Positions 38,576 through 50,614 of a DNA stretch of 64,000 nt are shown here, piece after piece (the stretch's first letter is position 1; each line of letters begins with the position of its first letter). This DNA comes from an uncultured Alphaproteobacteria bacterium (GTDB taxonomy: Bacteria > Pseudomonadota > Alphaproteobacteria > Rhizobiales > Beijerinckiaceae). The translations under genes were made by a program, and so were the position numbers. The stretch covers positions 1,905 to 65,904 of the forward strand of contig CAVRMF010000002.1 of assembly GCA_963721905.1 (NCBI GenBank), in the 5' to 3' direction. The notes under the pieces are model-generated. The model worked only from the letters and a program-made list of their open reading frames with translations. It was not told the DNA's origin and ran no database searches.

Positions 38576-38632
38576 CTCCCTTCTCCCGCGAGCGGGAGAA
38601 GGTGGCAATTTCCGGGCGCGAATCTCGGGCTT

Positions 38633-39118
38633 TCAATCGCTTGGCGCGCCCTTTCCGGGCGGGCTGGCTACTGGCGCTCCCAGCGCAAGAGGGATTTGCG
38701 CCGGCATGCCGAGGCGCCGCGCCTCGGGGCGCGGATCGTGCCCGGCGGCGACGAAACCGTGATAGCGGTCGAGCTCCCGGACGATTTTGACGACGCGGTC
38801 GACAGCCTGGAGGTTGGCGCCCGACATCGCCGAGTAGGAGACGAGCAGGGCTTCATTCAATCGTCCGACCTGCACGGCGAGGAATTCAGCTGGCGGCTGC
38901 GGCATGCGCCGGGCGAGGATCTCCTGAACCAGCGCCTGCATCCGCTTCACCGTCACGCGCTCGCGCGACGCGATCTCGGCAACGGAAACGCCCGCGTTCA
39001 ACAGTGCGACGATCCCTTTTTCGCGCTCGGCTTTCTTCCGGCGCGCTGCTCTTCGCGCCGTGATCGAACGGTTGCGCGGGAGGGAGGGCGGCGAGAGCGA
39101 TTCGGGAGCGTCGGGCAT
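38633..39118 (-). CDS. Hypothetical protein with a probable HTH
   Basis: GVSVAEIASRERVTVKRMQALV helix-turn-helix pattern; GGAGG-like RBS upstream. Confidence 0.55.
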   Translation of the reverse strand: MPDAPESLSPPSLPRNRSITARRAARRKKAEREKGIVALLNAGVSVAEIASRERVTVKRMQALVQEILARRMPQPPAEFLAVQVGRLNEALLVSYSAMSGANLQAVDRVVKIVRELDRYHGFVAAGHDPRPEARRLGMPAQIPLALGAPVASPPGKGAPSD

Positions 39119-39561
39119 CTGGACCTCTGCATGGATGGGATGAGAAGAAGGATAGCGCGGTTCTGATAATCTGGAAGAAATTGTTGCGATTCCGGAAATC
39201 ATGGTTAGCGGCGCAACAGGCTCGCGCGGCAAGCGCCATCGTCATTGACGAGGATAGGGAGACGCGCCCCGCGCCGGACGCGTAACCAATCCAGCGCCCG
39301 CAACAAGCGCCTTCCGCCCAAAACCAAAGATAGCGGCGCAGACGCGATTCTCTTCGGCTCATGCGCAGCCTTGTCAAAGCCGCGCCACGGGCGCAGTTTC
39401 GGCCGCGATAAGGCTGTCAACTGGCGAACGTCGGAACAAATAATTGCCCGACTTTTCACAAGACACAGGCGGCGAAAGTGGTTGAGAAAGCGCCAAACCG
39501 GTACGTTAACATATTCAAATCGGCTATTGATAGAGTGGCAAAACTGCGACGCGTCACTCTA

Positions 39562-40508
39562 GGGCCTGTGTTCAGTTGAGGAGGATGGCGGCGCAGGCGA
39601 GTTGAACGCCAGCGAGGAAAGTCTTGGCGAGTATTGTCGTAACGAGTGGCGATGGCATTAGCGCTTGAAATGCTTGAGCGAAGTTGTAGGCTGTGAGAAG
39701 GCCAGACGCTGCGATGAGATTTGCGTTCGCAGTAGAGAGCGAAATCGCATGGCGACGGCGGTTTTTCGGTTCGATTTGGATAGGGATGACTGGTGGCGAT
39801 CGCTCGATCGTCGAGAGGCGGCAATGAAGGTGTGCGGCGTCGAGAGACGCCGGTTGGGGTCTTGGCGATCAAGGCAGCCGGGAGAGGACAGTTCGATCAG
39901 AGGTTCGGCGCAAGTGAGATCGTAGGATCATCGGCCGGCATCTCAGAAAAGCTATCACCTCGACGGGATTGCCGAGGGCATCGACGAGCGCGTGAATTTT
40001 AGTCGTCAATCCGCCGCGGGATCGGCCGATGGCTTGCGCACCGTCTTTTTTTGGGCGCCGGCGCTATGCTGGTGAGCGCGCACAATGGTGGCGTCAATCA
40101 TCATGTATTCGTTGTCGTGATCGCTGGCCAATAGCCTGAAAACCCGCTCGAAAACCCCGCTCTTGGCCCATCGGTTGAAGCGCTGATAGACGATCTTCCA
40201 GTCGCCAAAGCGCTCGGGCAGATCGCGCCAAGGGATACCGGCTCGAAACCTGAAGAGAACGGCTTCGACGAACAGGCGATTGTCCGCCGCCGTACCGCCC
40301 ACATGGCCTTCGCGGCCCGGCAGAATGTCTTTGATCCGATCAAACTGGTCGTCGCGCAATGCATATCGTCGCATCGGTCGGCCCCTCCTCAGGCCAACCA
40401 CTCATGAGTCAGAACATTTGCTGATTAGGAACATCCCTCACCGATCCAAAACACAAAGTGTTCCGCGTCCGATTCCGATCCGTTCTCGCGTCAACTGAAC
40501 ACACGCCC
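39562..40508 (-). mobile_element. IS5-family (IS427-like) element
   Basis: IRs GGGCCTGTGTTCAGTTGA and its counterpart match at 17/18; TA duplicated within the target CTCTAGAG. Confidence 0.85.
39572..40374 (-). pseudogene. IS5 transposase; orfA intact, orfB riddled with indels
   Basis: GIPWRDLPERFG and MIDATIVRAHQH motifs, A7 slippery run, then SRGGLTTKIH. Downstream remnants (CDFALYCER, AIATRYD) fall in shifting frames. Confidence 0.8.
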
Positions 40509-40769
40509 TAGAGCAACGTGGTGAAAAGGAGCGGCACCTTTCTGAAGTTAAAAGTAAGCCGGAGCCAACGGTAAATTTGGAGTTTGGTAGTGAATTATTC
40601 AACGATAATCGCGAGCGTCGTGATGCATCTCGACCAATTCGGCAACCATCTTCGACCGAAACGGACCCAAAGGAACGTTCGACTGCTGATTTGAATGAAG
40701 ATTTTCTCATTGCGGCAATGCTCGGCGATCCGCCTGCGGTACAATCCTTCATAGCCAAAGGGGTCGATA

Positions 40770-42036
40770 CTCATGAATCCCCTCATTTCGTGAAGGACTT
40801 ATGTTGGCCCTATTTCGCAGCGAAATCATGAGGATATCGAATCACCTCATGATGAGCCTGGGCCATGAACCGTCTGACCAAGCGCTTTGATTTCATTCAA
40901 AACTATCTCGACGCTCTATTTTCAGAAGACCTCCATGCGAAGCGTGTGAAGTCCCTGGCCAATGGCGCGCTCGGCGTGATGACGAGCGCATCGCTGGCGG
41001 TGTCGATCATCGGCCAGTCTCTGGCCGAAGCGCGCGGGCTGCTGAGCAAGCACGCCATCAAGCAAGTCGATCGGCTGTTGAGCAATCAAGGCATCGTCGT
41101 TTGGGATATGTTTGGGCCCTGGGTGGCGCAGATCGTTGGCCAGCGGAAGACGATCGTTGTCGCCATGGACTGGACCGACTTCGACGCCGACGATCAAACG
41201 ACGCTGGCCTTGAACCTGATCACTAACCACGGTCGGGCGACGCCTTTGCTGTGGCTGACCGTGTTGAAGGACGAACTGAAAGACAGGCGCAACGACTACG
41301 AGGACCTCTGCCTGGCCCGCTTGGCCGAGGTTCTGCCCGAGGGCGTCGCGGTGACGATTTTCGCCGATCGCGGTTTCGGCGACACCAAGCTGTTCGCCTA
41401 TCTCGAGAGGTTGGGCTTCGCCTACGTCATCCGGTTTCGCGGCAACATCCATGTCAGCGCGGCCGATGGCGAAACCCGCGCCGCCGCCGCATGGACCGGG
41501 ACGGGCGGACGAGCGCGCAAGCTGCGCGACGCCGAGGTCACGGCGGGCCGGCATCGGGTCGCAGCGGTCGTCTGTGTCAAAGCCAAGGACATGAAGGAGG
41601 CTTGGTGTCTGGCCGCCAGCAATGCCGAGGCGACCGCGCGCGAAATCATGAACTATTACGCCAAGCGCTGGACGATCGAGCCTGGCTTTCGCGACACCAA
41701 GGACCTTCGTTTCGGCATGGGCCTAAGCGTTCTTCGCATCGCCGATCCGCAACGGCGCGACAGGCTTCTTCTGCTCAACGCCTTCGCCATCGTTCTCCTG
41801 ACGCTGCTCGGCGCCGCTGGCGAAAGCCTCGGCATGGATCGCCATCTCAAGGTCAACACGGCCAAACACCGGACCCATTCGCTGTTCCGGCAGGGATGTA
41901 TGCTCTACGAGTTGATCCCCAACATGCCGGAGGTCCGCCTGCGGCCGCTCGTCGAACGGTTCAGCGAATATATCACCCAAAACAGAGCCTTGGCTCAGAC
42001 CTTCGCGGTCGTATGAAAAATGAGGGGATGGCTGAG
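40770..42036 (+). mobile_element. IS4-family element
   Basis: IRs CTCATGAATCCCCTCATTT and its counterpart match at 16/19; 8-bp TSD GGTCGATA (40762-69, 42037-44). Confidence 0.88.
40865..42016 (+). CDS. IS4-family DDE transposase
   Basis: AMDWTD, FADRGF and YAKRWTIEPGFRDTK motifs. Confidence 0.9.
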   Translation: MNRLTKRFDFIQNYLDALFSEDLHAKRVKSLANGALGVMTSASLAVSIIGQSLAEARGLLSKHAIKQVDRLLSNQGIVVWDMFGPWVAQIVGQRKTIVVAMDWTDFDADDQTTLALNLITNHGRATPLLWLTVLKDELKDRRNDYEDLCLARLAEVLPEGVAVTIFADRGFGDTKLFAYLERLGFAYVIRFRGNIHVSAADGETRAAAAWTGTGGRARKLRDAEVTAGRHRVAAVVCVKAKDMKEAWCLAASNAEATAREIMNYYAKRWTIEPGFRDTKDLRFGMGLSVLRIADPQRRDRLLLLNAFAIVLLTLLGAAGESLGMDRHLKVNTAKHRTHSLFRQGCMLYELIPNMPEVRLRPLVERFSEYITQNRALAQTFAVV

Positions 42037-42646
42037 GGTCGATATAGAATGCAAGGACGCGAAAGGCTGGACTGCATTGATTTTAGCCTCTGAGCAGCGA
42101 CGACTTGAGGTCGTGCGGTGGCTGCTCGCCAAAGGGGCGGACAGGAATGCTAAGGCAAGCGATGGCGAGACCGCGCTGATGAAGGCTTCGTCGAAACGCA
42201 GCGCCGATATAGTACGGGCACTACTAGGTACTTTGACCGATGCGGCGAAGCGCGGCGATGCAGCTGCGGTTCAGGCGCTAGTCGCCAGTGGGGCGAACGT
42301 CAACGAGAGTGTAATCCACGCTGATGACACTCCTGGTGAAACTGCACTGATCATAGCAATCGGGCAAGGTCATCGTGATGTGGCGGCCGTCTTGATGGCT
42401 ATGGGGGCGGACATCAACAAAAAGGGTTTCTATCGGAACACGGCTCTCAAGGTAGCATCTGGAATCGGCGACGTAGACTTGGTGCAGGCGTTGCTCGCTA
42501 AGGGGCTCTAAGACGTCTTTGATGATCGCGGCTTCGGAGGGCCATCGCGCAGTGGTGCAAGCACTCCTGGTCAGAGGCGCCGACGTTGACGCGAAATCGA
42601 CGTTCAAATTCAATGCGGGTACGACCGCCCTAATGCTAGCCGCTAG

Positions 42647-44241
42647 CAGCCTGTCGGACTTAACGCCTCGCCTGCGATTACGCTAGAATCAGGCATTGAT
42701 TCGGGCAGGGCGGCGGGCGTTTTTGATGAGCAATTTTCGGACGATCGATCGCGAGACAGGGTTCTTGCTGCCTCCCTCGGTCGACGAATGGCTTCCCGAG
42801 AAACATCTGGCGCGATTTGTCGTGGAGGTTGTCGAAGGGCTCGATCTTCGGGCGATGAGCGGCAGTTACCGCGGTTCCGGGTCGGCGTCGTATCATCCGC
42901 GAATGCTGCTGGGCCTTCTGGTTTACGGCTATGCGACAGGGGTGTTTTCGAGCCGCAAGTTGGAGCGTGCGACCTATGACTCGGTGGCGTTCCGGTTCAT
43001 CGCGGCCAACGATCATCCCGACCACGACACGATCGCGACCTTCAGACGCCGCTTTCTCGCGGAGATCGAAGCTCTGTTCGCTCAAGTGCTGCTGCTGGCG
43101 CGGGAGATGGGCGTTCTGAAGATGGGGACGGTGGCGCTGGACGGCACGAAGATTTATGCCAACGCCAGCCGGCACAGTGCGCTGTCTTATGAACACGCCG
43201 GCAAGATCGAGGCGCAGTTGAAAGCCGAAGTCGCCGATCTGATGGCCAAGGCCGAAGCGGCCGACGCGGCGGACATTCCCGACGGCATGTCGATACCGGA
43301 CGAACTGGCGCGGCGCGAGGAGCGGTTGCGCAAGCTGGCCGAGGCTCGGGCGAAGATCGAGGCGCGGGCCAAGGAACGCCATGCGCGCGAGCAGGCGGAG
43401 CACGAAGCCAAGCTCGCGGCGCGGCAGGCGAAGGCGGAGAGGAGCGGGAAAAAGCCCCGCGGCAAGCCTCCCGAACCTCCGGTCGAGGGGCCGCGCCCGA
43501 ACGACCAGATCAACCTGACCGACGAGGAGTCGCGCATCATGCCGGTGGCCGGCGGCGGCTTCGATCAATGCTACAACGCCCAGGCCGCGGTGGCGGCGGG
43601 AAGTCTGCTGGTGGTGGCGAGCGCCGTGAGCCAGACGCCCAACGACAAGCAGCAACTCGAACCGATGCTGGACAAGATCGAGGCTCTTGCCGACGAACTG
43701 GGCAAGCCCGAATGCCTGCTGGCGGATACGGGCTATTTCAGCGCGGCGAACGTCGCGGCTTGCGACAAGGCGGGGATCGAACCGCTGATCGCCATGGGCC
43801 GTCAGCCGCATCATCCGCCGTTGGCCGAGCGCTTCGAAGCGGCGCCGGAAGCGCCGCAAGATCCAACGCCGGTCGAGGCGATGGCGCATCGGCTGACGAC
43901 GGCGGCAGGCCGGGCGCTTTACGCGCTGCGCAAGCAGATGCCGGAGCCAGTGTTCGGGATCATCAAATCGGCGCTGGGATTCCGTCAATTTTTGCTGCGC
44001 GGCCTCGCGGGCGCGCGCGGCGAATGGAGCCTCGTCACCATGGCCTGGAACATCAAGCGGATGTTCGCCCTCGTCCCGGCCTGACAAGGCTTAGTTGCGC
44101 CCGGCTCGGCAGACAGGTCCCCAGAAAACGGCGATCTCCGGCCCCTTCAACCACTTTCTGCACCCAACCCAACGCCCGGCGCCGCCGCAACCGCCAAAAT
44201 CACTCGCGGCGATCAACCGCAACCCCCAGTCCGACAGGCTG
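42647..44241 (+). mobile_element. IS1182-family element
   Basis: Perfect 14-bp IRs CAGCCTGTCGGACT/AGTCCGACAGGCTG; 4-bp TSD CTAG. Confidence 0.9.
42726..44084 (+). CDS. IS1182-family transposase
   Basis: YHPRMLL, FSSRKLE, PDHDTIATFR, ALDGTKI, LADTGYFS and PEPVFGIIK motifs. Confidence 0.9.
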   Translation: MSNFRTIDRETGFLLPPSVDEWLPEKHLARFVVEVVEGLDLRAMSGSYRGSGSASYHPRMLLGLLVYGYATGVFSSRKLERATYDSVAFRFIAANDHPDHDTIATFRRRFLAEIEALFAQVLLLAREMGVLKMGTVALDGTKIYANASRHSALSYEHAGKIEAQLKAEVADLMAKAEAADAADIPDGMSIPDELARREERLRKLAEARAKIEARAKERHAREQAEHEAKLAARQAKAERSGKKPRGKPPEPPVEGPRPNDQINLTDEESRIMPVAGGGFDQCYNAQAAVAAGSLLVVASAVSQTPNDKQQLEPMLDKIEALADELGKPECLLADTGYFSAANVAACDKAGIEPLIAMGRQPHHPPLAERFEAAPEAPQDPTPVEAMAHRLTTAAGRALYALRKQMPEPVFGIIKSALGFRQFLLRGLAGARGEWSLVTMAWNIKRMFALVPA

Positions 44242-44418
44242 CTAGGGGAGGTCATTTTGAAATAGTGCAGGCACTGCTCGGCAAAGGAGCTGACGTTAAC
44301 GCTAAGGACAGTGAAGGCTCTGGGGTGCTAAATACGACGAGTGACGCCAGGGTCAAGTCTTTACTGGTTCAGGCAGGGGCCAAACCATGACAGCGCCATG
44401 CCAGCGCCGCTTTTGCGG

Positions 44419-44781
44419 TCAGAATACGATGGCTGAAGCAACAGTAGGCGCGCCGATCGTGTCGCCGGGCTTGATGCGGAGATTGACCGCCCACCCCAGT
44501 CGCACCAACGTCCCGTCGTCAGCCAGAGTTTCAACGTGCACGAGCACAGTCCAATTGCATTGATCGTTCGAAGCGTACGTGTGATCATCACTGGAATAGG
44601 AGAAGATTGGAAAATGCAGGTTTGGCAGCCTGTCTTTGACGGCTTGCTGCGCGGCCGAAATCATATTGTCCGGTTTGTAGGAACAGACCTCCGAAATTGG
44701 GTGATGCGAGGCAAGACCAACGCTCAGCATCGCGACGCCGACGATTGGGCCTACGCCAAGCAGTGTGGCGCCTAGTCTCAT
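44419..44781 (-). CDS. Hypothetical exported or anchored protein
   Basis: 120-aa ORF with a hydrophobic N-terminus; lower GC. Confidence 0.4.
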   Translation of the reverse strand: MRLGATLLGVGPIVGVAMLSVGLASHHPISEVCSYKPDNMISAAQQAVKDRLPNLHFPIFSYSSDDHTYASNDQCNWTVLVHVETLADDGTLVRLGWAVNLRIKPGDTIGAPTVASAIVF

Positions 44782-45139
44782 AAGAGTGGCCTTCGAACTT
44801 AAAACATCCGAAGGCTAACCCAATGGCTTTGCATTCGCCGCAAGAGAATCGATCAAATTTGAGCAGTTCCGCTCGACCGCACAAGCGTCGAGTGTCAAGG
44901 ATTTGGATGGATTTTCCGCGTCGTTGGAACAAAGGGTGGGTAACTCGACTGATCGGTGGACCTCGACACCAGGATCAAGACCTTCCGCGCCGAGAAGCGG
45001 CTTGGGCCGCACAACCGGCTCCACGTCGTGTCATTGTTGCCGTCTCAATGAGCCGGCAAGGCAGCGTCATCGACACCTGGAGGTGGTCGCGCTTCGAGGG
45101 CTGCTGGGGTTGCGCCGCGCGTTTTCACGCACGGCGGTC

Positions 45140-45406
45140 TCACCGATACGGCCAGCAGGACGGCTCGGCGCGCCTCACGAGTTTGCAGGCGCCGGCGCGG
45201 GCCGTGAAGGGCGCGAGATTGCGGGGGTGGAGAGAATGGAGCCAAAGCCAGTCGCTCCAGGTCCCGATTACCCTACAGTCGTCAGGATTGTCCCCGCAAC
45301 GCACGGTGTCGCCTTCCTGTACGGGTTGGCTGTCATGGAGGGGTTGGCTGTAGGCCGAATCGTCAAATGCCGCAACGGTTGCGTCATACTGGGCAACAGA
45401 CGTCAT
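45140..45406 (-). CDS. Small hypothetical protein
   Basis: AGGA RBS, ATG at 45406, globular-looking 88 aa. Confidence 0.35.
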   Translation of the reverse strand: MTSVAQYDATVAAFDDSAYSQPLHDSQPVQEGDTVRCGDNPDDCRVIGTWSDWLWLHSLHPRNLAPFTARAGACKLVRRAEPSCWPYR

Positions 45407-46019
45407 GGGTTCTGTTCCTGCTTCAAGAGCTGGCCAAAATGCCGCACCAGGCTTGGGAAGCGGCCTCGCCCGGTGCTTTGCGGGGCCCCGCACCGGCCGC
45501 AGGCGATGCGGCCGGCCGCAGCCGATGCGGGGCGAGACCGAGCGCGCTTGCCGGAATGGGCAGCGTTGCGCGCGAGGCTCGTTAGAATGCGGCCGCCCGC
45601 GGTGTGAGATCAAGTCGGCAAAAATCGGTATGGCGTAATCCTTTCGGTCGCACGATGCGGCGTTGCCACGGCGCGCGGCCGACGGCGAGCGAGGTAGTGC
45701 GGACTCCGGTGAAATCGGCTCTTAAAACTCGTTCCCGATTTCCCGGTTCTCGAAAGGTCGTGAACCAGCGACTTTCGAGTGGTGCAGAGGTCAAAATTGC
45801 TTCGGGTTATACAGGCCGAAACATCAAGCGGGTCAGCGAGGCCCGCTCGCCGCCCTTTGCGGCTCATCGTTGGCTGTCGAAAAAATTGGGCGCTCGTTGT
45901 CGTCCGCTTGATTTTTGTCGCGCTTCCCGCGATTCTTATGTTTGAAGACGCGGGGCTCGAGCCGTAAGGCCGGCCTTGGACCCCTCGCGCCTGGCCAGAG
46001 AGGAACGTCCGAAAGCCGG

Positions 46020-46481
46020 ATGAACAACCCCGTCTCAAATCCCACTCAACCCTATCGCAGCCTGCTCGCCGGATATACGGAAGCGATCCGGGCGAGTGAT
46101 TTGAAGGCGAACATCGCGTTTCTTTTCGTTGCGTTCATGATGGGCTCGGTCCTCTATAACTATACCAGCTTTCCACCTTACCTGCCGATCCATATCGTCT
46201 TGATGCCGTTCCTAGTCGTCTACTTTTGTTTGTTCGCGGTGCTCCTTCCGCGCTATCCCAAGCGCGGCGCCAAGAACTTTCTCGTTTCACGTAACCTGAC
46301 GCCGGCCGATTTCGAAAACGTCGTCGAAACAGAGGACAGCCTCGACCAGTTGAAGCTGCGCTGCGCAGTGTTCTCGGATATTCTTTGGTGGAAAACGCTG
46401 TTTCTCCGCACCAGCCTTATCGTGTCGATTGTCTGCGTTTTCGTAACCCTCATTCTGTTGTATTACGCTTGGCTTAGCTAA
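46020..46481 (+). CDS. Pycsar-effector-like (DUF5706/PycTM) membrane protein, copy 1
   Basis: IRASDLKANIAFLF, TM1-TM2, LLPRY, then FSDILWWK before TM3. Confidence 0.7.
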   Translation: MNNPVSNPTQPYRSLLAGYTEAIRASDLKANIAFLFVAFMMGSVLYNYTSFPPYLPIHIVLMPFLVVYFCLFAVLLPRYPKRGAKNFLVSRNLTPADFENVVETEDSLDQLKLRCAVFSDILWWKTLFLRTSLIVSIVCVFVTLILLYYAWLS

Positions 46482-46519
46482 TTCCGAAGCGCGCGCATCG
46501 GGCCGAGTTGGAGCGTTTG

Positions 46520-46969
46520 ATGGCCAAAGACAGAAACACGCGGTTGCGCAATCTCATCTCCGGCTACAGCGACTCGATCCGCCTCAGCGACATCAAGGCC
46601 CTCATCGCGGTGCTATTCGTGGCGATCATGATGGGAACGGCTCTGCAGTTCCGCGCACTCTATCCGTGGTACCTGAAGGCGCCGGTCATCCTGACGCCGT
46701 TCATGATCATTTTTCTTAACTTGCTGATCTCGATTTATCCGCGATTTCCCCGCGCCGGTCGGCAGCGCTTCCCGATCCGGCGCAATCCGGATCCGGAGGA
46801 TTTCGACTTCATCGCCGACACTGAGGCCGAAATCGAGGGGCTCCCCGCGCGGTGCGCCCTTCTGTCGCGTATCCTCTGGTGGAAGACCACCACGCTGCTG
46901 GCGGCCAATGTTGTGGCGATGGCCTGCCTTGCGGCGGCTGCGATCCTGCTCATTGTCGGACACCTCTGA
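46520..46969 (+). CDS. Pycsar-effector-like (DUF5706/PycTM) membrane protein, copy 2
   Basis: IRLSDIKALIAVLF, IYPRF and LSRILWWK motifs; same architecture as copy 1. Confidence 0.7.
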   Translation: MAKDRNTRLRNLISGYSDSIRLSDIKALIAVLFVAIMMGTALQFRALYPWYLKAPVILTPFMIIFLNLLISIYPRFPRAGRQRFPIRRNPDPEDFDFIADTEAEIEGLPARCALLSRILWWKTTTLLAANVVAMACLAAAAILLIVGHL

Positions 46970-47171
46970 GCGCTGCCGGCCGTCTCTTGGGCGGGAACCA
47001 AGCGCCGGATTTTGTTCAAGTGCACTCATCGGCCCAACGCTGATCGGTCCACGATGGCGCGGTCAGTCCGCAAAAAACGCTCTCACCGCCGCATTTCGAG
47101 TCCCCGCCCGCAAACGCGGGCAGTCGGGACGGCGCCCGGCTCCTGCGAGGCCGAGGCAGGCTTCGCCTCTC

Positions 47172-47939
47172 TTATTCGCCGGCGCCGAGGTCTGGGTCGT
47201 TGTAGGTCAGCGGCGCCACGCGGTAGCGCGGGTCTTTTTTAAGCTCAGCGTATTCCTCGGCCGTCAAAGGTCTCGTGCTGTTCGTGTCGCTAAAAAAGGT
47301 GACGTTTTTAGCCTGGGGAGGCGGTGTCTCTCCAGCGTTCAGGTAGTGTGCAAGGATAGTCGTTTCGTAATTGATCGTGGGGAGCGGAGCGCGGGCTATT
47401 GGCGCTTTGGTGGCGCGCAGGTGGGTCCACAGGGCGCGGTCTGCAAAATAGGCTTTGCCGCGATCGGCGAAGCACAGGGGGCGAAGTCGGACCAGCGCCT
47501 CTTTGGTGAAGAGATAACAGTTGCAGTCGTTGAAATGGACGCCATCGCTTTCAGTGCAAACGCCCATGAGGCTCTCGTCGAGACGGCGGAGGTAGCGGGG
47601 GCAGGTGATGATTTCGGCGCCTGTCTGGCGCTGGGTGAGCGCCATCTGTTCGATGTGGTTTGGTTCGAGCCAGCAATCGGCGTCGAGGAGCAAGTAGCCG
47701 TCGTAGTTAAGGGCGGATGCGGCGAGCAGGCCAATCATTCGAGGCGTGTAGCCGGTGTCGTTTTGCGGTATTGGCAGTCGAATGTGGGTCACGGGCCAAT
47801 TGTCGACTGCTGGATTGGGATGGCCGTCGGCAACCATGACGTGGGCGGCGGGGATGGTTTGGGCTTTGACGCTAGCGTGGCAACGCCAGAGTTTCTCTGT
47901 GGGCTCTTTGTAATATGGCGTTATGACAGCATATATCAT
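47172..47939 (-). CDS. GT-A fold glycosyltransferase (GT2-like)
   Basis: AVITPYY, VMVADG and LLDAD (DxD) motifs. Confidence 0.75.
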   Translation of the reverse strand: MIYAVITPYYKEPTEKLWRCHASVKAQTIPAAHVMVADGHPNPAVDNWPVTHIRLPIPQNDTGYTPRMIGLLAASALNYDGYLLLDADCWLEPNHIEQMALTQRQTGAEIITCPRYLRRLDESLMGVCTESDGVHFNDCNCYLFTKEALVRLRPLCFADRGKAYFADRALWTHLRATKAPIARAPLPTINYETTILAHYLNAGETPPPQAKNVTFFSDTNSTRPLTAEEYAELKKDPRYRVAPLTYNDPDLGAGE

Positions 47940-48051
47940 GATCGCTCTTTTTGGCCGGGGTTGCCGCCTGCGCTGCTGTGATCCGCATGACCTTGACGGC
48001 GTTGCCGATCACGTCGGGGGAGGCGCTCGCCTCTAGGGCCGCGAGGCATCT

Positions 48052-48321
48052 CTAAATCCTGGGGAAGCCCGGCGGAGGGTAACTATCGGATCCCTGTTGT
48101 CCACGCCAAGGCGTCAACTGGTGTAGGTACCAGTCCTCAACCTGTTGTTTTTGGTCGTCCGACAGGAGATGAACGATCCCGGAAATCACGTCAACAGCGC
48201 CTTGAGCGTAGCCGCGTCCATAAGTTTTCTCTTCTCCTCGGCTCCGATCATCAAACAGCTCCCGCTTCCCGCCCGGCGTACCACGGGACATTGGGGAGGC
48301 GCGAACGCGCGTCAAGCCCAT
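48052..48321 (-). CDS. Small hypothetical protein
   Basis: ORF only; amphipathic YGRGYAQGAVDVISGIVHLL. Confidence 0.35.
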   Translation of the reverse strand: MGLTRVRASPMSRGTPGGKRELFDDRSRGEEKTYGRGYAQGAVDVISGIVHLLSDDQKQQVEDWYLHQLTPWRGQQGSDSYPPPGFPRI

Positions 48322-48507
48322 AAAATCTCAAACTGGAGACACTTCCCGGCCCGGGCGTCTAATCCGCTCGCGCGGTCCTCTCGCGAAGGCGATTCAGCCG
48401 GATTGTTTAGCACAATTCTGCACAGCTGCCGCGCGTCACGCCGCATTGCTGCGCGCGAAAGCCTGGGGCATAAGACCTGCAACCACGCATTCGCCAGGGA
48501 GCGGAAC

Positions 48508-50022: not shown

Positions 50023-50614
50023 ATGACCGCGGCTCCCGGGCTGCCGCTCGGCAGCCAGTCCGCGCTCGCCGAGCCCACGGCGCTGAAACACATGACGTCG
50101 GACGATCTGGGTCGAGGGGAAGGAAGGCCGGTGGGAGTTGCATGACGGCGCGCCGGTTATGATGTCGCCGGAGCGCGTTCTGCACGGGGACACGAAAGGC
50201 GAGGCCTATGCCGCGCTGAGAGATGCTGTTCGTCGCGCGGGACTGCCCTTCAAGGTCTATCCCGACGGAGTCGCGGTCCGTATCGACGCCAAGACAAACT
50301 ATCAGCCCGACGTTTCGGTCAGTCGCGGTCCGCGGCCCCCGGCGGACGCTCAAGCGATCACGGACCCGATCATCGTCGTCGAAGTCCTCTCGCCCAGCAC
50401 GGCGGCGATCGATCACCGGCGCAAGCTCAGCAGCTATTTCTGGCTGCAGAGCGTTGAGCATTATGTCATTCTCGATCCCGAGCGCCGGGTCGTTATCCAT
50501 CACAAGCGCGGGCAGGGCAGAGCGATCGAGACGCGCGTTTTGTCGAACGGATTGGCGAGGCTCGACCCGCCCGGGTTTGAGTTGGCGGTCGAGGCGCTGC
50601 TTCCCGCGCCCTGA
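50023..50614 (+). pseudogene. Uma2-family endonuclease-like protein, frameshifted near 50105
   Basis: KHMTSD and W.EGKEGRWELHDG fall in different frames; QPDV and VVEVLSPST motifs. Confidence 0.7.

Follow-up and report, generated by a model that had tools for sequence, protein, structure and literature searches.

A pair of distant PycTM-family membrane protein genes without a neighbouring cyclase in Roseiarcus-like bacteria

The window analysed here, a stretch of 64,000 nucleotides from an uncultured alphaproteobacterium of the family Beijerinckiaceae (assembly GCA_963721905.1, contig CAVRMF010000002.1), carries two small co-oriented genes, named A and B, that code for related proteins with three predicted transmembrane (TM) segments. 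Together with the putative regulatory DNA ahead of them they very probably constitute an orphan, paired and distant cassette of the PycTM family. To our knowledge, the only role so far understood for PycTM-type proteins is that of the killing arm in cyclase-based phage defence, and a full-text literature search found no account of PycTM relatives that are paired or lack a cyclase. In the wider family of proteins with three TM segments (3TM), members that act independently of a cyclase are already known, SpdB3 being an example.

The gene pair, its products and its leader

The features of the locus, in window coordinates and all on the plus strand, are:

45908-45932, +, promoter-like element, with a -35-like TTGAT(T), a spacer and a near-invariant TTC(A/C)CGCGA box, 88-112 nt upstream of the start of A
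45933-46019, +, non-coding 5' leader of A, with a GGAG/GGAA Shine-Dalgarno-like block near 46001-46005
46006-46022, +, predicted 6-bp hairpin CGUCCG-AAAGC-CGGAUG, whose 3' arm holds the AUG of A
46020-46481, +, gene A (ATG at 46020, TAA at 46479-46481), 153 amino acids; distant relative of the PycTM/SpdB3 family ('A type'), predicted inner-membrane 3TM protein
46482-46519, +, A-B spacer of 38 bp, with the Shine-Dalgarno sequence of B (GGAG at 46510-46513) followed by CGTTTG-ATG
46520-46969, +, gene B (ATG at 46520, stop codon ending at 46969), 149 amino acids; predicted 3TM paralogue ('B type')
47145-47166, +, terminator-like stem-loop between B and a convergent glycosyltransferase gene; stem of 8 pairs (6 G-C) with a weak T tract, found by consensus scan only

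An earlier reading of the window, made from the sequence alone, had described two diverged co-oriented paralogues 38 bp apart, and its coordinates were exact. A and B are 44% identical across 114 residues (BLASTP, E 2e-36) and their paralogy is also detectable in the DNA, as direct repeats with a spacing of 491 bp. The G+C content of the pair is 0.54-0.57 versus ~0.65 in the flanks.

Hydropathy analysis finds three hydrophobic segments in each protein, those of A covering residues 28-46, 59-77 and 132-150. AlphaFold2 models built on the family alignment have helices at 10-46, 57-75 and 108-152 in A (pLDDT 74.8) and at 2-43, 54-72 and 108-148 in B (pLDDT 77.9), with the loop after TM2 at low confidence in both. 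By the two methods A and B have the 3TM architecture of SpdB3 and PycTM, and they share one layout: an N-terminal helix, two TM helices, a loop containing the dipeptide PR, and a WWK-TM3 segment. The conserved core comprises, in A numbering, Y19, I23, R24, D27, K29 and A30 of the N-terminal helix, P77-R78 directly past TM2, and C115 together with W123(-W124)-K125 ahead of TM3. Y19, I23, R24, D27 and K29, P77-R78, C115 and the W123(-W124)-K125 motif are invariant or near-invariant in A-type, B-type and more distant relatives. The pattern singled out in the sequence-only reading (an S/A-D-x-K-A helix, TM-TM-PR and ILWWK-TM) is real and coincides with this family core. Because basic residues concentrate at the N-terminus and in the loop 76-126, the positive-inside rule would have every conserved soluble motif facing the cytoplasm. 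TM3 differs between the types, with alanine and other small residues in B and bulky beta-branched residues in A.

The helix-WWK-TM3 portion of A (residues ~91-149, window ~46290-46466) has a marginal match (E 0.03) to the juxtamembrane 'KRKYWWKNL' and TM segment of VAMP2/synaptobrevin. This sole PDB sequence match was set aside as probably due to convergence on a membrane-interface motif, or compositional.

Conservation at the nucleotide level reaches ~100-190 nt upstream of A, and the ~100 nt ahead of the gene are 72-86% identical across loci with unrelated flanks. The promoter-like element of the window reads TTGATTTTTGTCGCGCTTCCCGCGA (45908-45932). In 33 aligned leaders whose genomic contexts differ, CTTGACA and TTCACGCGA are invariant or at least 90% conserved, the -35-like motif being TTGACA in most relatives and TTGAT(T) in the window. 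The pattern TTGACA-N10-14-TYACGCRA is present in 34 loci, once in each, always ~90-115 nt upstream of A and nowhere else in the fetched DNA; the promoter pattern also has a single match in the window. The element is best read as a putative sigma-70-type promoter with a conserved box in its spacer and -10 region.

The leader that follows has its reading frames interrupted by stops (MFEDAGLEP and then a stop in the window, versus longer called N-termini in protein P0111) and it differs in other synteny groups. Rfam searches, both of 44000-48500 at E <= 1 and of the whole window, gave nothing at or near the pair and the leader is therefore not a known riboswitch. Its single-sequence fold is no better than that of shuffled sequences (z = -0.37). 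The hairpin at the start codon of A is the only consensus structure that RNAalifold returned for the 33 leaders, its pairs being retained in 29-32 of them, and it is a possible translational brake. A structured RNA element in the leader is not claimed, its fold being at the level of shuffles and its hairpin free of covariation. At the other end of the cassette, the stem-loop at 47145-47166 could be, with low confidence, the end of the A-B transcript.

Kinship with PycTM and conservation of the pair

Kinship of both proteins with the PycTM/DUF5706 family, as suggested in the sequence-only reading, holds in the form of a distant relationship; neither protein reaches the curated threshold of the family. 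In the hmmscan comparison with Pfam PF18967, A scores 20.7 bits (E 5.6e-4), under the gathering cut-off of 27.2, and B has no match. The PADLOC PycTM model PDLC02364 aligns to A over nearly its full length (model positions 16-152 of 160, E 3e-7) and to B with E 0.019. Among 39 family members scanned, 24 match PF18967 at E <= 0.01 (best E 1.1e-5). This is the only recurrent family match apart from SPC25, the model of another small membrane protein, whose match is recurrent but weak. NCBIfam gave no meaningful match for A, B or the small neighbouring open reading frames (ORFs).

A profile of A and B searched against 1.84 billion representative proteins found 157 matches, many of them fragments, and the A/B clade is therefore narrow. 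P0273, which belongs to a third paralogue type, is matched by this profile in the same library with E 2.6e-28 and passes the PF18967 cut-off (27.6 versus 27.2 bits). Another protein of the third type, P0454, bears the NCBI name 'Pycsar system effector family protein'. Homology of A and B to the PycTM family is accepted because P0273 bridges the two, A and B themselves lying below the curated threshold. The link thus appears real yet distant, and A and B are not clear PF18967 members.

The third type (C type, 170-175 amino acids, including P0273 and P0454) is found in the same genomes as A and B, has the same motifs and likewise no cyclase nearby; it differs in being solitary, in its longer N-terminus and in reaching the Pfam cut-off. 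In Roseiarcus the solitary C-type gene (loci L089-L092; 6001-6516 in L089) sits between a Transgly_assoc (GlsB/YeaQ-type) stress-protein gene and genes for a DegP-like protease and a GerE regulator, neighbours that suggest an envelope-stress setting. In another subfamily two 149-residue PycTM-like genes have an unannotated gene of 223 codons between them (L093, 6001-7748), which is a second kind of pairing.

Databases hold 456 homologues of A and 592 of B, the majority of the latter with a precomputed PF18967 match, and 143 relatives were found in a scan of one genome per species. In all, ~90 related loci were examined. The best 80 of the 143 species-representative relatives are all labelled Roseiarcus, Hyphomicrobiales or uncultured Alphaproteobacteria, and at least 16 of their genomes hold two or three copies. 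A cultured carrier is found among the relatives, the isolate Roseiarcus fermentans DSM 24875. The sequencing runs that hold the locus are soil and peat DNA metagenomes only.

The arrangement of the genes in 84 loci is:

A then B, 71 of 84 loci
A-A'-B triplet, 6 of 84 loci
A alone, 7 of 84 loci (6 distinct contigs)

The order A then B is retained in 77 of the 84 loci when triplets are included. In 75 non-redundant loci the median distance between the two genes is 37 bp (interquartile range 28-48), and B starts with ATG in 70 of them, with a recurring GGAGCG(T)TTG motif ahead. Both genes are under purifying selection, their median pairwise ratios of nonsynonymous to synonymous substitution rates (dN/dS) being 0.23 for A and 0.28 for B. 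The identity matrices of A and B correlate across loci (r = 0.76), and identity is ~70% within a type versus ~40% between A and B types. The two-subunit effector suggested in the sequence-only reading fits this order, spacing, correlation and selection; that the subunits form a heteromer is put forward here as a proposal.

The loci fall into two big synteny groups, of 41 and 14 loci, and otherwise into many small groups and singletons. Downstream genes of the 41-locus group code for methylmalonyl-CoA mutase, an alcohol dehydrogenase, ribose-5-phosphate isomerase and a disulfide reductase, while ComEC, glutamate dehydrogenase and ribosomal protein L33 genes are in the vicinity of the pair in the 14-locus group. 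Sequence identity is 0.78-0.87 inside synteny groups versus 0.64 between them, and the nearest sequence neighbour belongs to the same synteny group for 34 of 39 loci. Two copies of one genome, one from each big group, are only ~60% identical. Since sequence tracks synteny and copies within one genome are this divergent, the duplication of the whole pair is old, and both products of it were retained. One of the genomes also carries, in another context, a duplicate of recent origin that is 97% identical. In loci L048 (10556-10997) and L074 (10478-10922) the alignment of B is broken in two, with a change of frame between the parts, a sign that these copies may be frameshifted and decaying, and the B copy of L060 is unusually divergent (47% identity).

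These data bear on an alternative in which A and B are independent tandem duplicates, each building its own homo-oligomer for the same or a sub-functionalised role, with no obligatory complex. Loci with A alone exist, the A-A'-B triplets indicate a flexible copy number, the relatives in the more distant subfamilies are as a rule solitary, and PucTM, the relative whose assembly is described below, is a homo-hexamer. We nevertheless hold independent duplicates to be unlikely: the two types stay distinct, order and spacing were kept through the old duplication of the whole pair, the distances of A and B co-vary, and the composition of TM3 differs systematically between them.

Cyclases, neighbouring genes and the upstream insertion

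The sequence-only reading recognised no cyclase, CD-NTase or TIR gene near the pair and proposed a survey of paired homologues, in case these regularly sit beside a cyclase that was simply deleted here. Scans of the 64-kb window agree with it: phmmer with one seed each found no class III cyclase or cyclic nucleotide-binding domain (CNBD) at E < 0.01, and no cyclase, CD-NTase or TIR is among the 25 families listed for the 58 window proteins (PADLOC and Pfam). No such gene adjoins the pair in the ~90 related loci either, nor is there a neighbouring cyclase in six more distant subfamilies checked on their contigs. An adjoining PycC, as in Pycsar, is thus lacking at all these levels, and what is missing here was not lost by a local deletion; the condition named as refuting the sequence-only reading, homologues regularly beside a cyclase, does not arise. 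Class III cyclase homologues occur in only two contigs of the related loci, at least 6.5 kb from the pair; one is a response-regulator cyclase 6.5 kb away in L002.

PADLOC matches to 'PycTIR', 'TIR effector' and 'PycC' among the neighbours all come from one stand-alone CNBD protein of 147-151 amino acids (PF00027, E 3.4e-20; CNBD part of the PADLOC PycTIR model, E 7e-19). A TIR or cyclase among the neighbours was rejected, because what the protein matches in those models is their CNBD portion alone. Its gene is co-oriented with the pair and upstream of it in 15 related loci of one broad synteny group. Of the 19 loci with this gene, with a small unannotated gene for a 99-residue helical protein or with both, 18 have the gene for the 99-residue protein, the order being CNBD, 99-residue protein, A(-A')-B (for example L021, L024, L027 and L047, at about 9000-11700). 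This run is compact in the triplet loci; elsewhere other genes are inserted in it and the outer flanks vary. With every one of these loci in the same broad synteny group, the linkage may amount to just one evolutionary event, and it is a lead and not evidence. No other connection of the family to nucleotide signalling was found, and the window lacks the CNBD gene.

The lead bears on the possibility that the pair is the receptor and effector of a cyclic nucleotide (cNMP) made by a distant cyclase, acting either as a trans-operating abortive infection (Abi) system of Pycsar or Pucsar type or as a physiological cNMP-gated channel. Homology to PycTM, the co-oriented CNBD gene in 15 loci of one synteny group and the presence of class III cyclases in these genomes, as in L002, speak for it. 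We judge this receptor improbable, as the 64 kb of the window hold no CNBD or cyclase gene, the CNBD linkage is limited to one orthologous neighbourhood and often has intervening genes, and the CNBD match is generic, with a Pfam score about equal to the PycTIR score. Moreover, small PycTM proteins have no known nucleotide-binding site, and the study of PucTM could not place cGMP.

Directly ahead of the cassette, 7.28 kb of DNA (38580-45862) are inserted between a dehydrogenase gene and the pair. This block is missing from loci L085, L086 and L088, which are 96-98% identical to the window and have a short-chain dehydrogenase gene directly upstream of the A-B cassette. The ~600 bp without a credible ORF noted upstream of A do exist, and they are accounted for as the right-hand end of this insertion, rich in insertion sequences (IS). 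The end of the insertion lies 45 bp ahead of the promoter-like element at 45908, a proximity that could recall a canonical Pycsar operon in decay, its PycC deleted or displaced by the inserted DNA. For this locus that history is refuted, and we give it next to no weight: the uninterrupted L085, L086 and L088 have the short-chain dehydrogenase and not a cyclase at this position, no cyclase adjoins the pair in the ~90 loci, and purifying selection acts on both genes.

Besides degraded sequence, the insertion contains two IS elements, one of which has split an ankyrin-repeat gene. A search for terminal repeats bounding the block 38580-45862 as a whole found none, and for this reason the block looks like a composite of several insertions. 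The ankyrin-repeat gene (Ank_2, E 1e-26; 42020-42686 and 44265-44390) is broken by an IS5/IS1182-like element (42640-44248) that codes for a 462-residue DDE transposase and has inverted repeats of 21 nt with 95% complementarity. An IS4-like element (40764-42042) codes for a 383-residue DDE transposase between 25-nt terminal inverted repeats. The segment 39552-40518, of ~970 bp with 28-nt inverted repeats (89% complementary) and no obvious transposase, resembles a miniature inverted-repeat transposable element. The segment 45075-45678 is 81% identical to 17203-17804 of L010, in opposite orientation and with frame changes, and probably represents the remains of a gene, within the insertion and outside the cassette. 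A 19-nt tandem duplication, CCGGCCGCAG(G/C)CGATGCGG, is found at 45493-45530.

Downstream of the pair, the glycosyltransferase gene named in the sequence-only reading is confirmed as one of family 2 (PF00535, E 9.5e-8) on the opposite strand. In L085 and L086 the downstream order is that of the window: the family 2 glycosyltransferase gene on the opposite strand, a hypothetical gene, an aldehyde dehydrogenase gene and a Uma2 gene. The latter, at 50138-50614 of the window and 3 kb downstream of the pair, codes for a putative restriction endonuclease of the Uma2 family (PF05685, E 6e-23).

Of 85 related loci, no more than 21 share any one flanking gene family. Pfam families of 150 neighbour representatives are metabolic and transport families, PADLOC matches among these representatives are few and generic, and there is no defence-island signal. 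No terminal repeats surround the A-B cassette and there is no sign of a transposon-like unit. Searches with A (tblastn) of 72,556 plasmids and 50,697 phage records found no relatives, and IMG/VR viral contigs gave no matches. Patchy, defence-island-like or mobile spread is the usual property of Pycsar- and Pucsar-type anti-phage systems. The A/B family does not have such a distribution, though the contexts of the window's own subclade vary. The framing of the pair as an Abi module or a receptor of Pycsar signals, offered in the sequence-only reading, is weakened by its ancient syntenic positions among housekeeping genes, by the missing phage, plasmid and viral matches and by the lack of a defence-island signal.

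The same observations weigh on a cyclase-independent Abi or toxin-antitoxin-like module, in which one paralogue would be a toxin that the other restrains until phage infection or stress. Such a module would accord with the toxicity of relatives (SpdB3 in E. coli, membrane disruption by PycTM), with the tightly conserved promoter and start-codon hairpin, with copies that adjoin an integrase, transposases or IS elements, and with the recent 97%-identical duplicate in one genome, which suggests mobility. It is a still less probable account than the two alternatives above, for loci with A alone speak against A needing an antidote in cis, the neighbours are mostly housekeeping genes with few and generic PADLOC matches, phage, plasmid and viral-contig collections hold no match, and the pair has been retained in synteny over the long term.

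Farther upstream in the window, Rfam identifies group II intron RNA domains at 3421-3558 and 7739-7959 (RF02003 with 95 bits and RF02005 with 173 bits), directly followed by ORFs at 3559-4422 and 8022-10370. The scan of the 58 window proteins gave one match to a reverse transcriptase with a homing endonuclease, not pinned to an ORF. A tRNA-Gly(GCC) gene lies on the minus strand at 10125-10199, under the end of ORF 8022-10370.

A proposed two-subunit membrane ring

PycTM is described as disrupting membrane integrity (PMC11224242). PycTM and PucTM have been placed in the pJV1-SpdB3 three-transmembrane family, and the PucTM of E. coli (EcPucTM) forms a hexameric ring in which TM2 lines a channel of ~15 Å (preprint 10.64898/2026.08.12.744502; the entry is named as PDB 37HR). 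A and B resemble PycTM in size, the PADLOC models of the PDLC02363/PDLC02364 pair having 154 and 160 positions, and in their three TM helices preceded by an N-terminal, presumably cytoplasmic helix. They differ from the PycTM of Pycsar systems in having no adjoining PycC, in forming a conserved heterologous pair rather than a single effector gene, and in being chromosomal, syntenic, multi-copy and confined to one lineage instead of patchy. The PucTM hexamer is the best available structural model for an assembly of A and B, which were modelled as monomers only. PucTM is a homo-hexamer, is encoded beside a cGMP-producing cyclase and has extra cytosolic alpha-helical and beta-sheet parts; the cytoplasmic side of A and B, unlike that of PucTM, would consist of a loop of ~45-50 residues and the N-terminal helix only.

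SpdB3 of the Streptomyces plasmids pJV1 and pSVH1 offers a second comparison, made by family name. This small integral membrane protein, after which the 3TM family is called, takes part in a multi-protein membrane complex, acts without a cyclase and is toxic to E. coli on over-expression (PMC4447253). SpdB3 is encoded on plasmids and works together with TraB and further Spd proteins in the intramycelial spread of the plasmid, whereas A and B are chromosomal and belong to a Gram-negative alphaproteobacterium. A role of the Spd kind finds no counterpart at these loci, as Pfam scans of the neighbours and of the window proteins gave no conjugation families (metabolic, transport and transposase families are those listed).

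The explanation that we favour, with a probability of roughly 0.45, is built by analogy with the PucTM ring. The segment 45908-46969 would be a self-contained chromosomal cassette of ~1.06 kb made of promoter, leader, A, the 38-bp spacer and B, and the two genes would be co-transcribed. A and B would insert in the inner membrane with their N-terminus in the cytoplasm and co-assemble as a hetero-oligomeric ring comparable to the homo-hexameric PucTM channel; the small TM3 residues of B and the bulky ones of A fit a complementary packing of the two subunits. The cytoplasmic face (N-terminal helix, P77-R78 and C115...W123-W124-K125) would serve as a regulatory or subunit-interface surface that controls membrane permeability. 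As no cyclase is encoded in cis, the trigger would be either something other than a nucleotide or a cyclic nucleotide from a cyclase elsewhere in the genome. The predicted hairpin, which would occlude the start codon of A, may keep the output of a potentially toxic membrane protein low. The old, vertical, syntenic and multi-copy spread of the pair among housekeeping genes points to a physiological or stress-related membrane role over a classical mobile defence.

Several observations weigh against this two-subunit ring. At the level of the family, the Pfam scores of both proteins are below the cut-off and B barely matches any PycTM model. Foldseek comparisons of the A and B models with the PDB (entries to April 2026) and BFVD gave nothing at E <= 0.001, and the PucTM entry 37HR is absent from the PDB sequence and fold matches, the proposed likeness to PucTM being one of analogy. 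At the level of the pair, A is without B in 7 of 84 loci and may function by itself or with a B from another locus, and tandem paralogues can act as separate homo-oligomers. No RNA-seq runs carrying the locus were found. The hairpin shows no compensatory change in the 33 leaders, so that structure and plain sequence conservation are indistinguishable there. Values of dN/dS near 0.25 are looser than usual for housekeeping genes. The window's own subclade occurs in varied contexts, next to an integrase in L002 and to the IS-rich insertion here, contexts more in keeping with accessory or mobile DNA than with a core gene; for this subclade an accessory role may be compatible with such variable places.

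A bolder version of the two-subunit ring is that a pore-forming effector of the Pycsar or Pucsar type was domesticated in Roseiarcus-like bacteria, where A and B would form a heteromeric channel of the inner membrane, kept in several chromosomal copies with a promoter and leader in common and gated in trans by a cyclic nucleotide via the CNBD protein beside the ancestral copy. We consider it a long shot. If true, an immune effector fold would have been reused for ordinary physiology or for an envelope-stress response.

The A/B clade appears to keep the PycTM fold, has lost or never had a linked cyclase, and has split into two co-inherited subunit types. If A and B build a heteromeric channel, the pair would offer a natural contrast of conserved and subunit-specific residues for the study of how 3TM rings assemble and open, and it would caution that an annotation as PF18967 or 'Pycsar effector' is on its own no sign of a defence system. 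R. fermentans DSM 24875, as a cultured carrier, makes the question testable.

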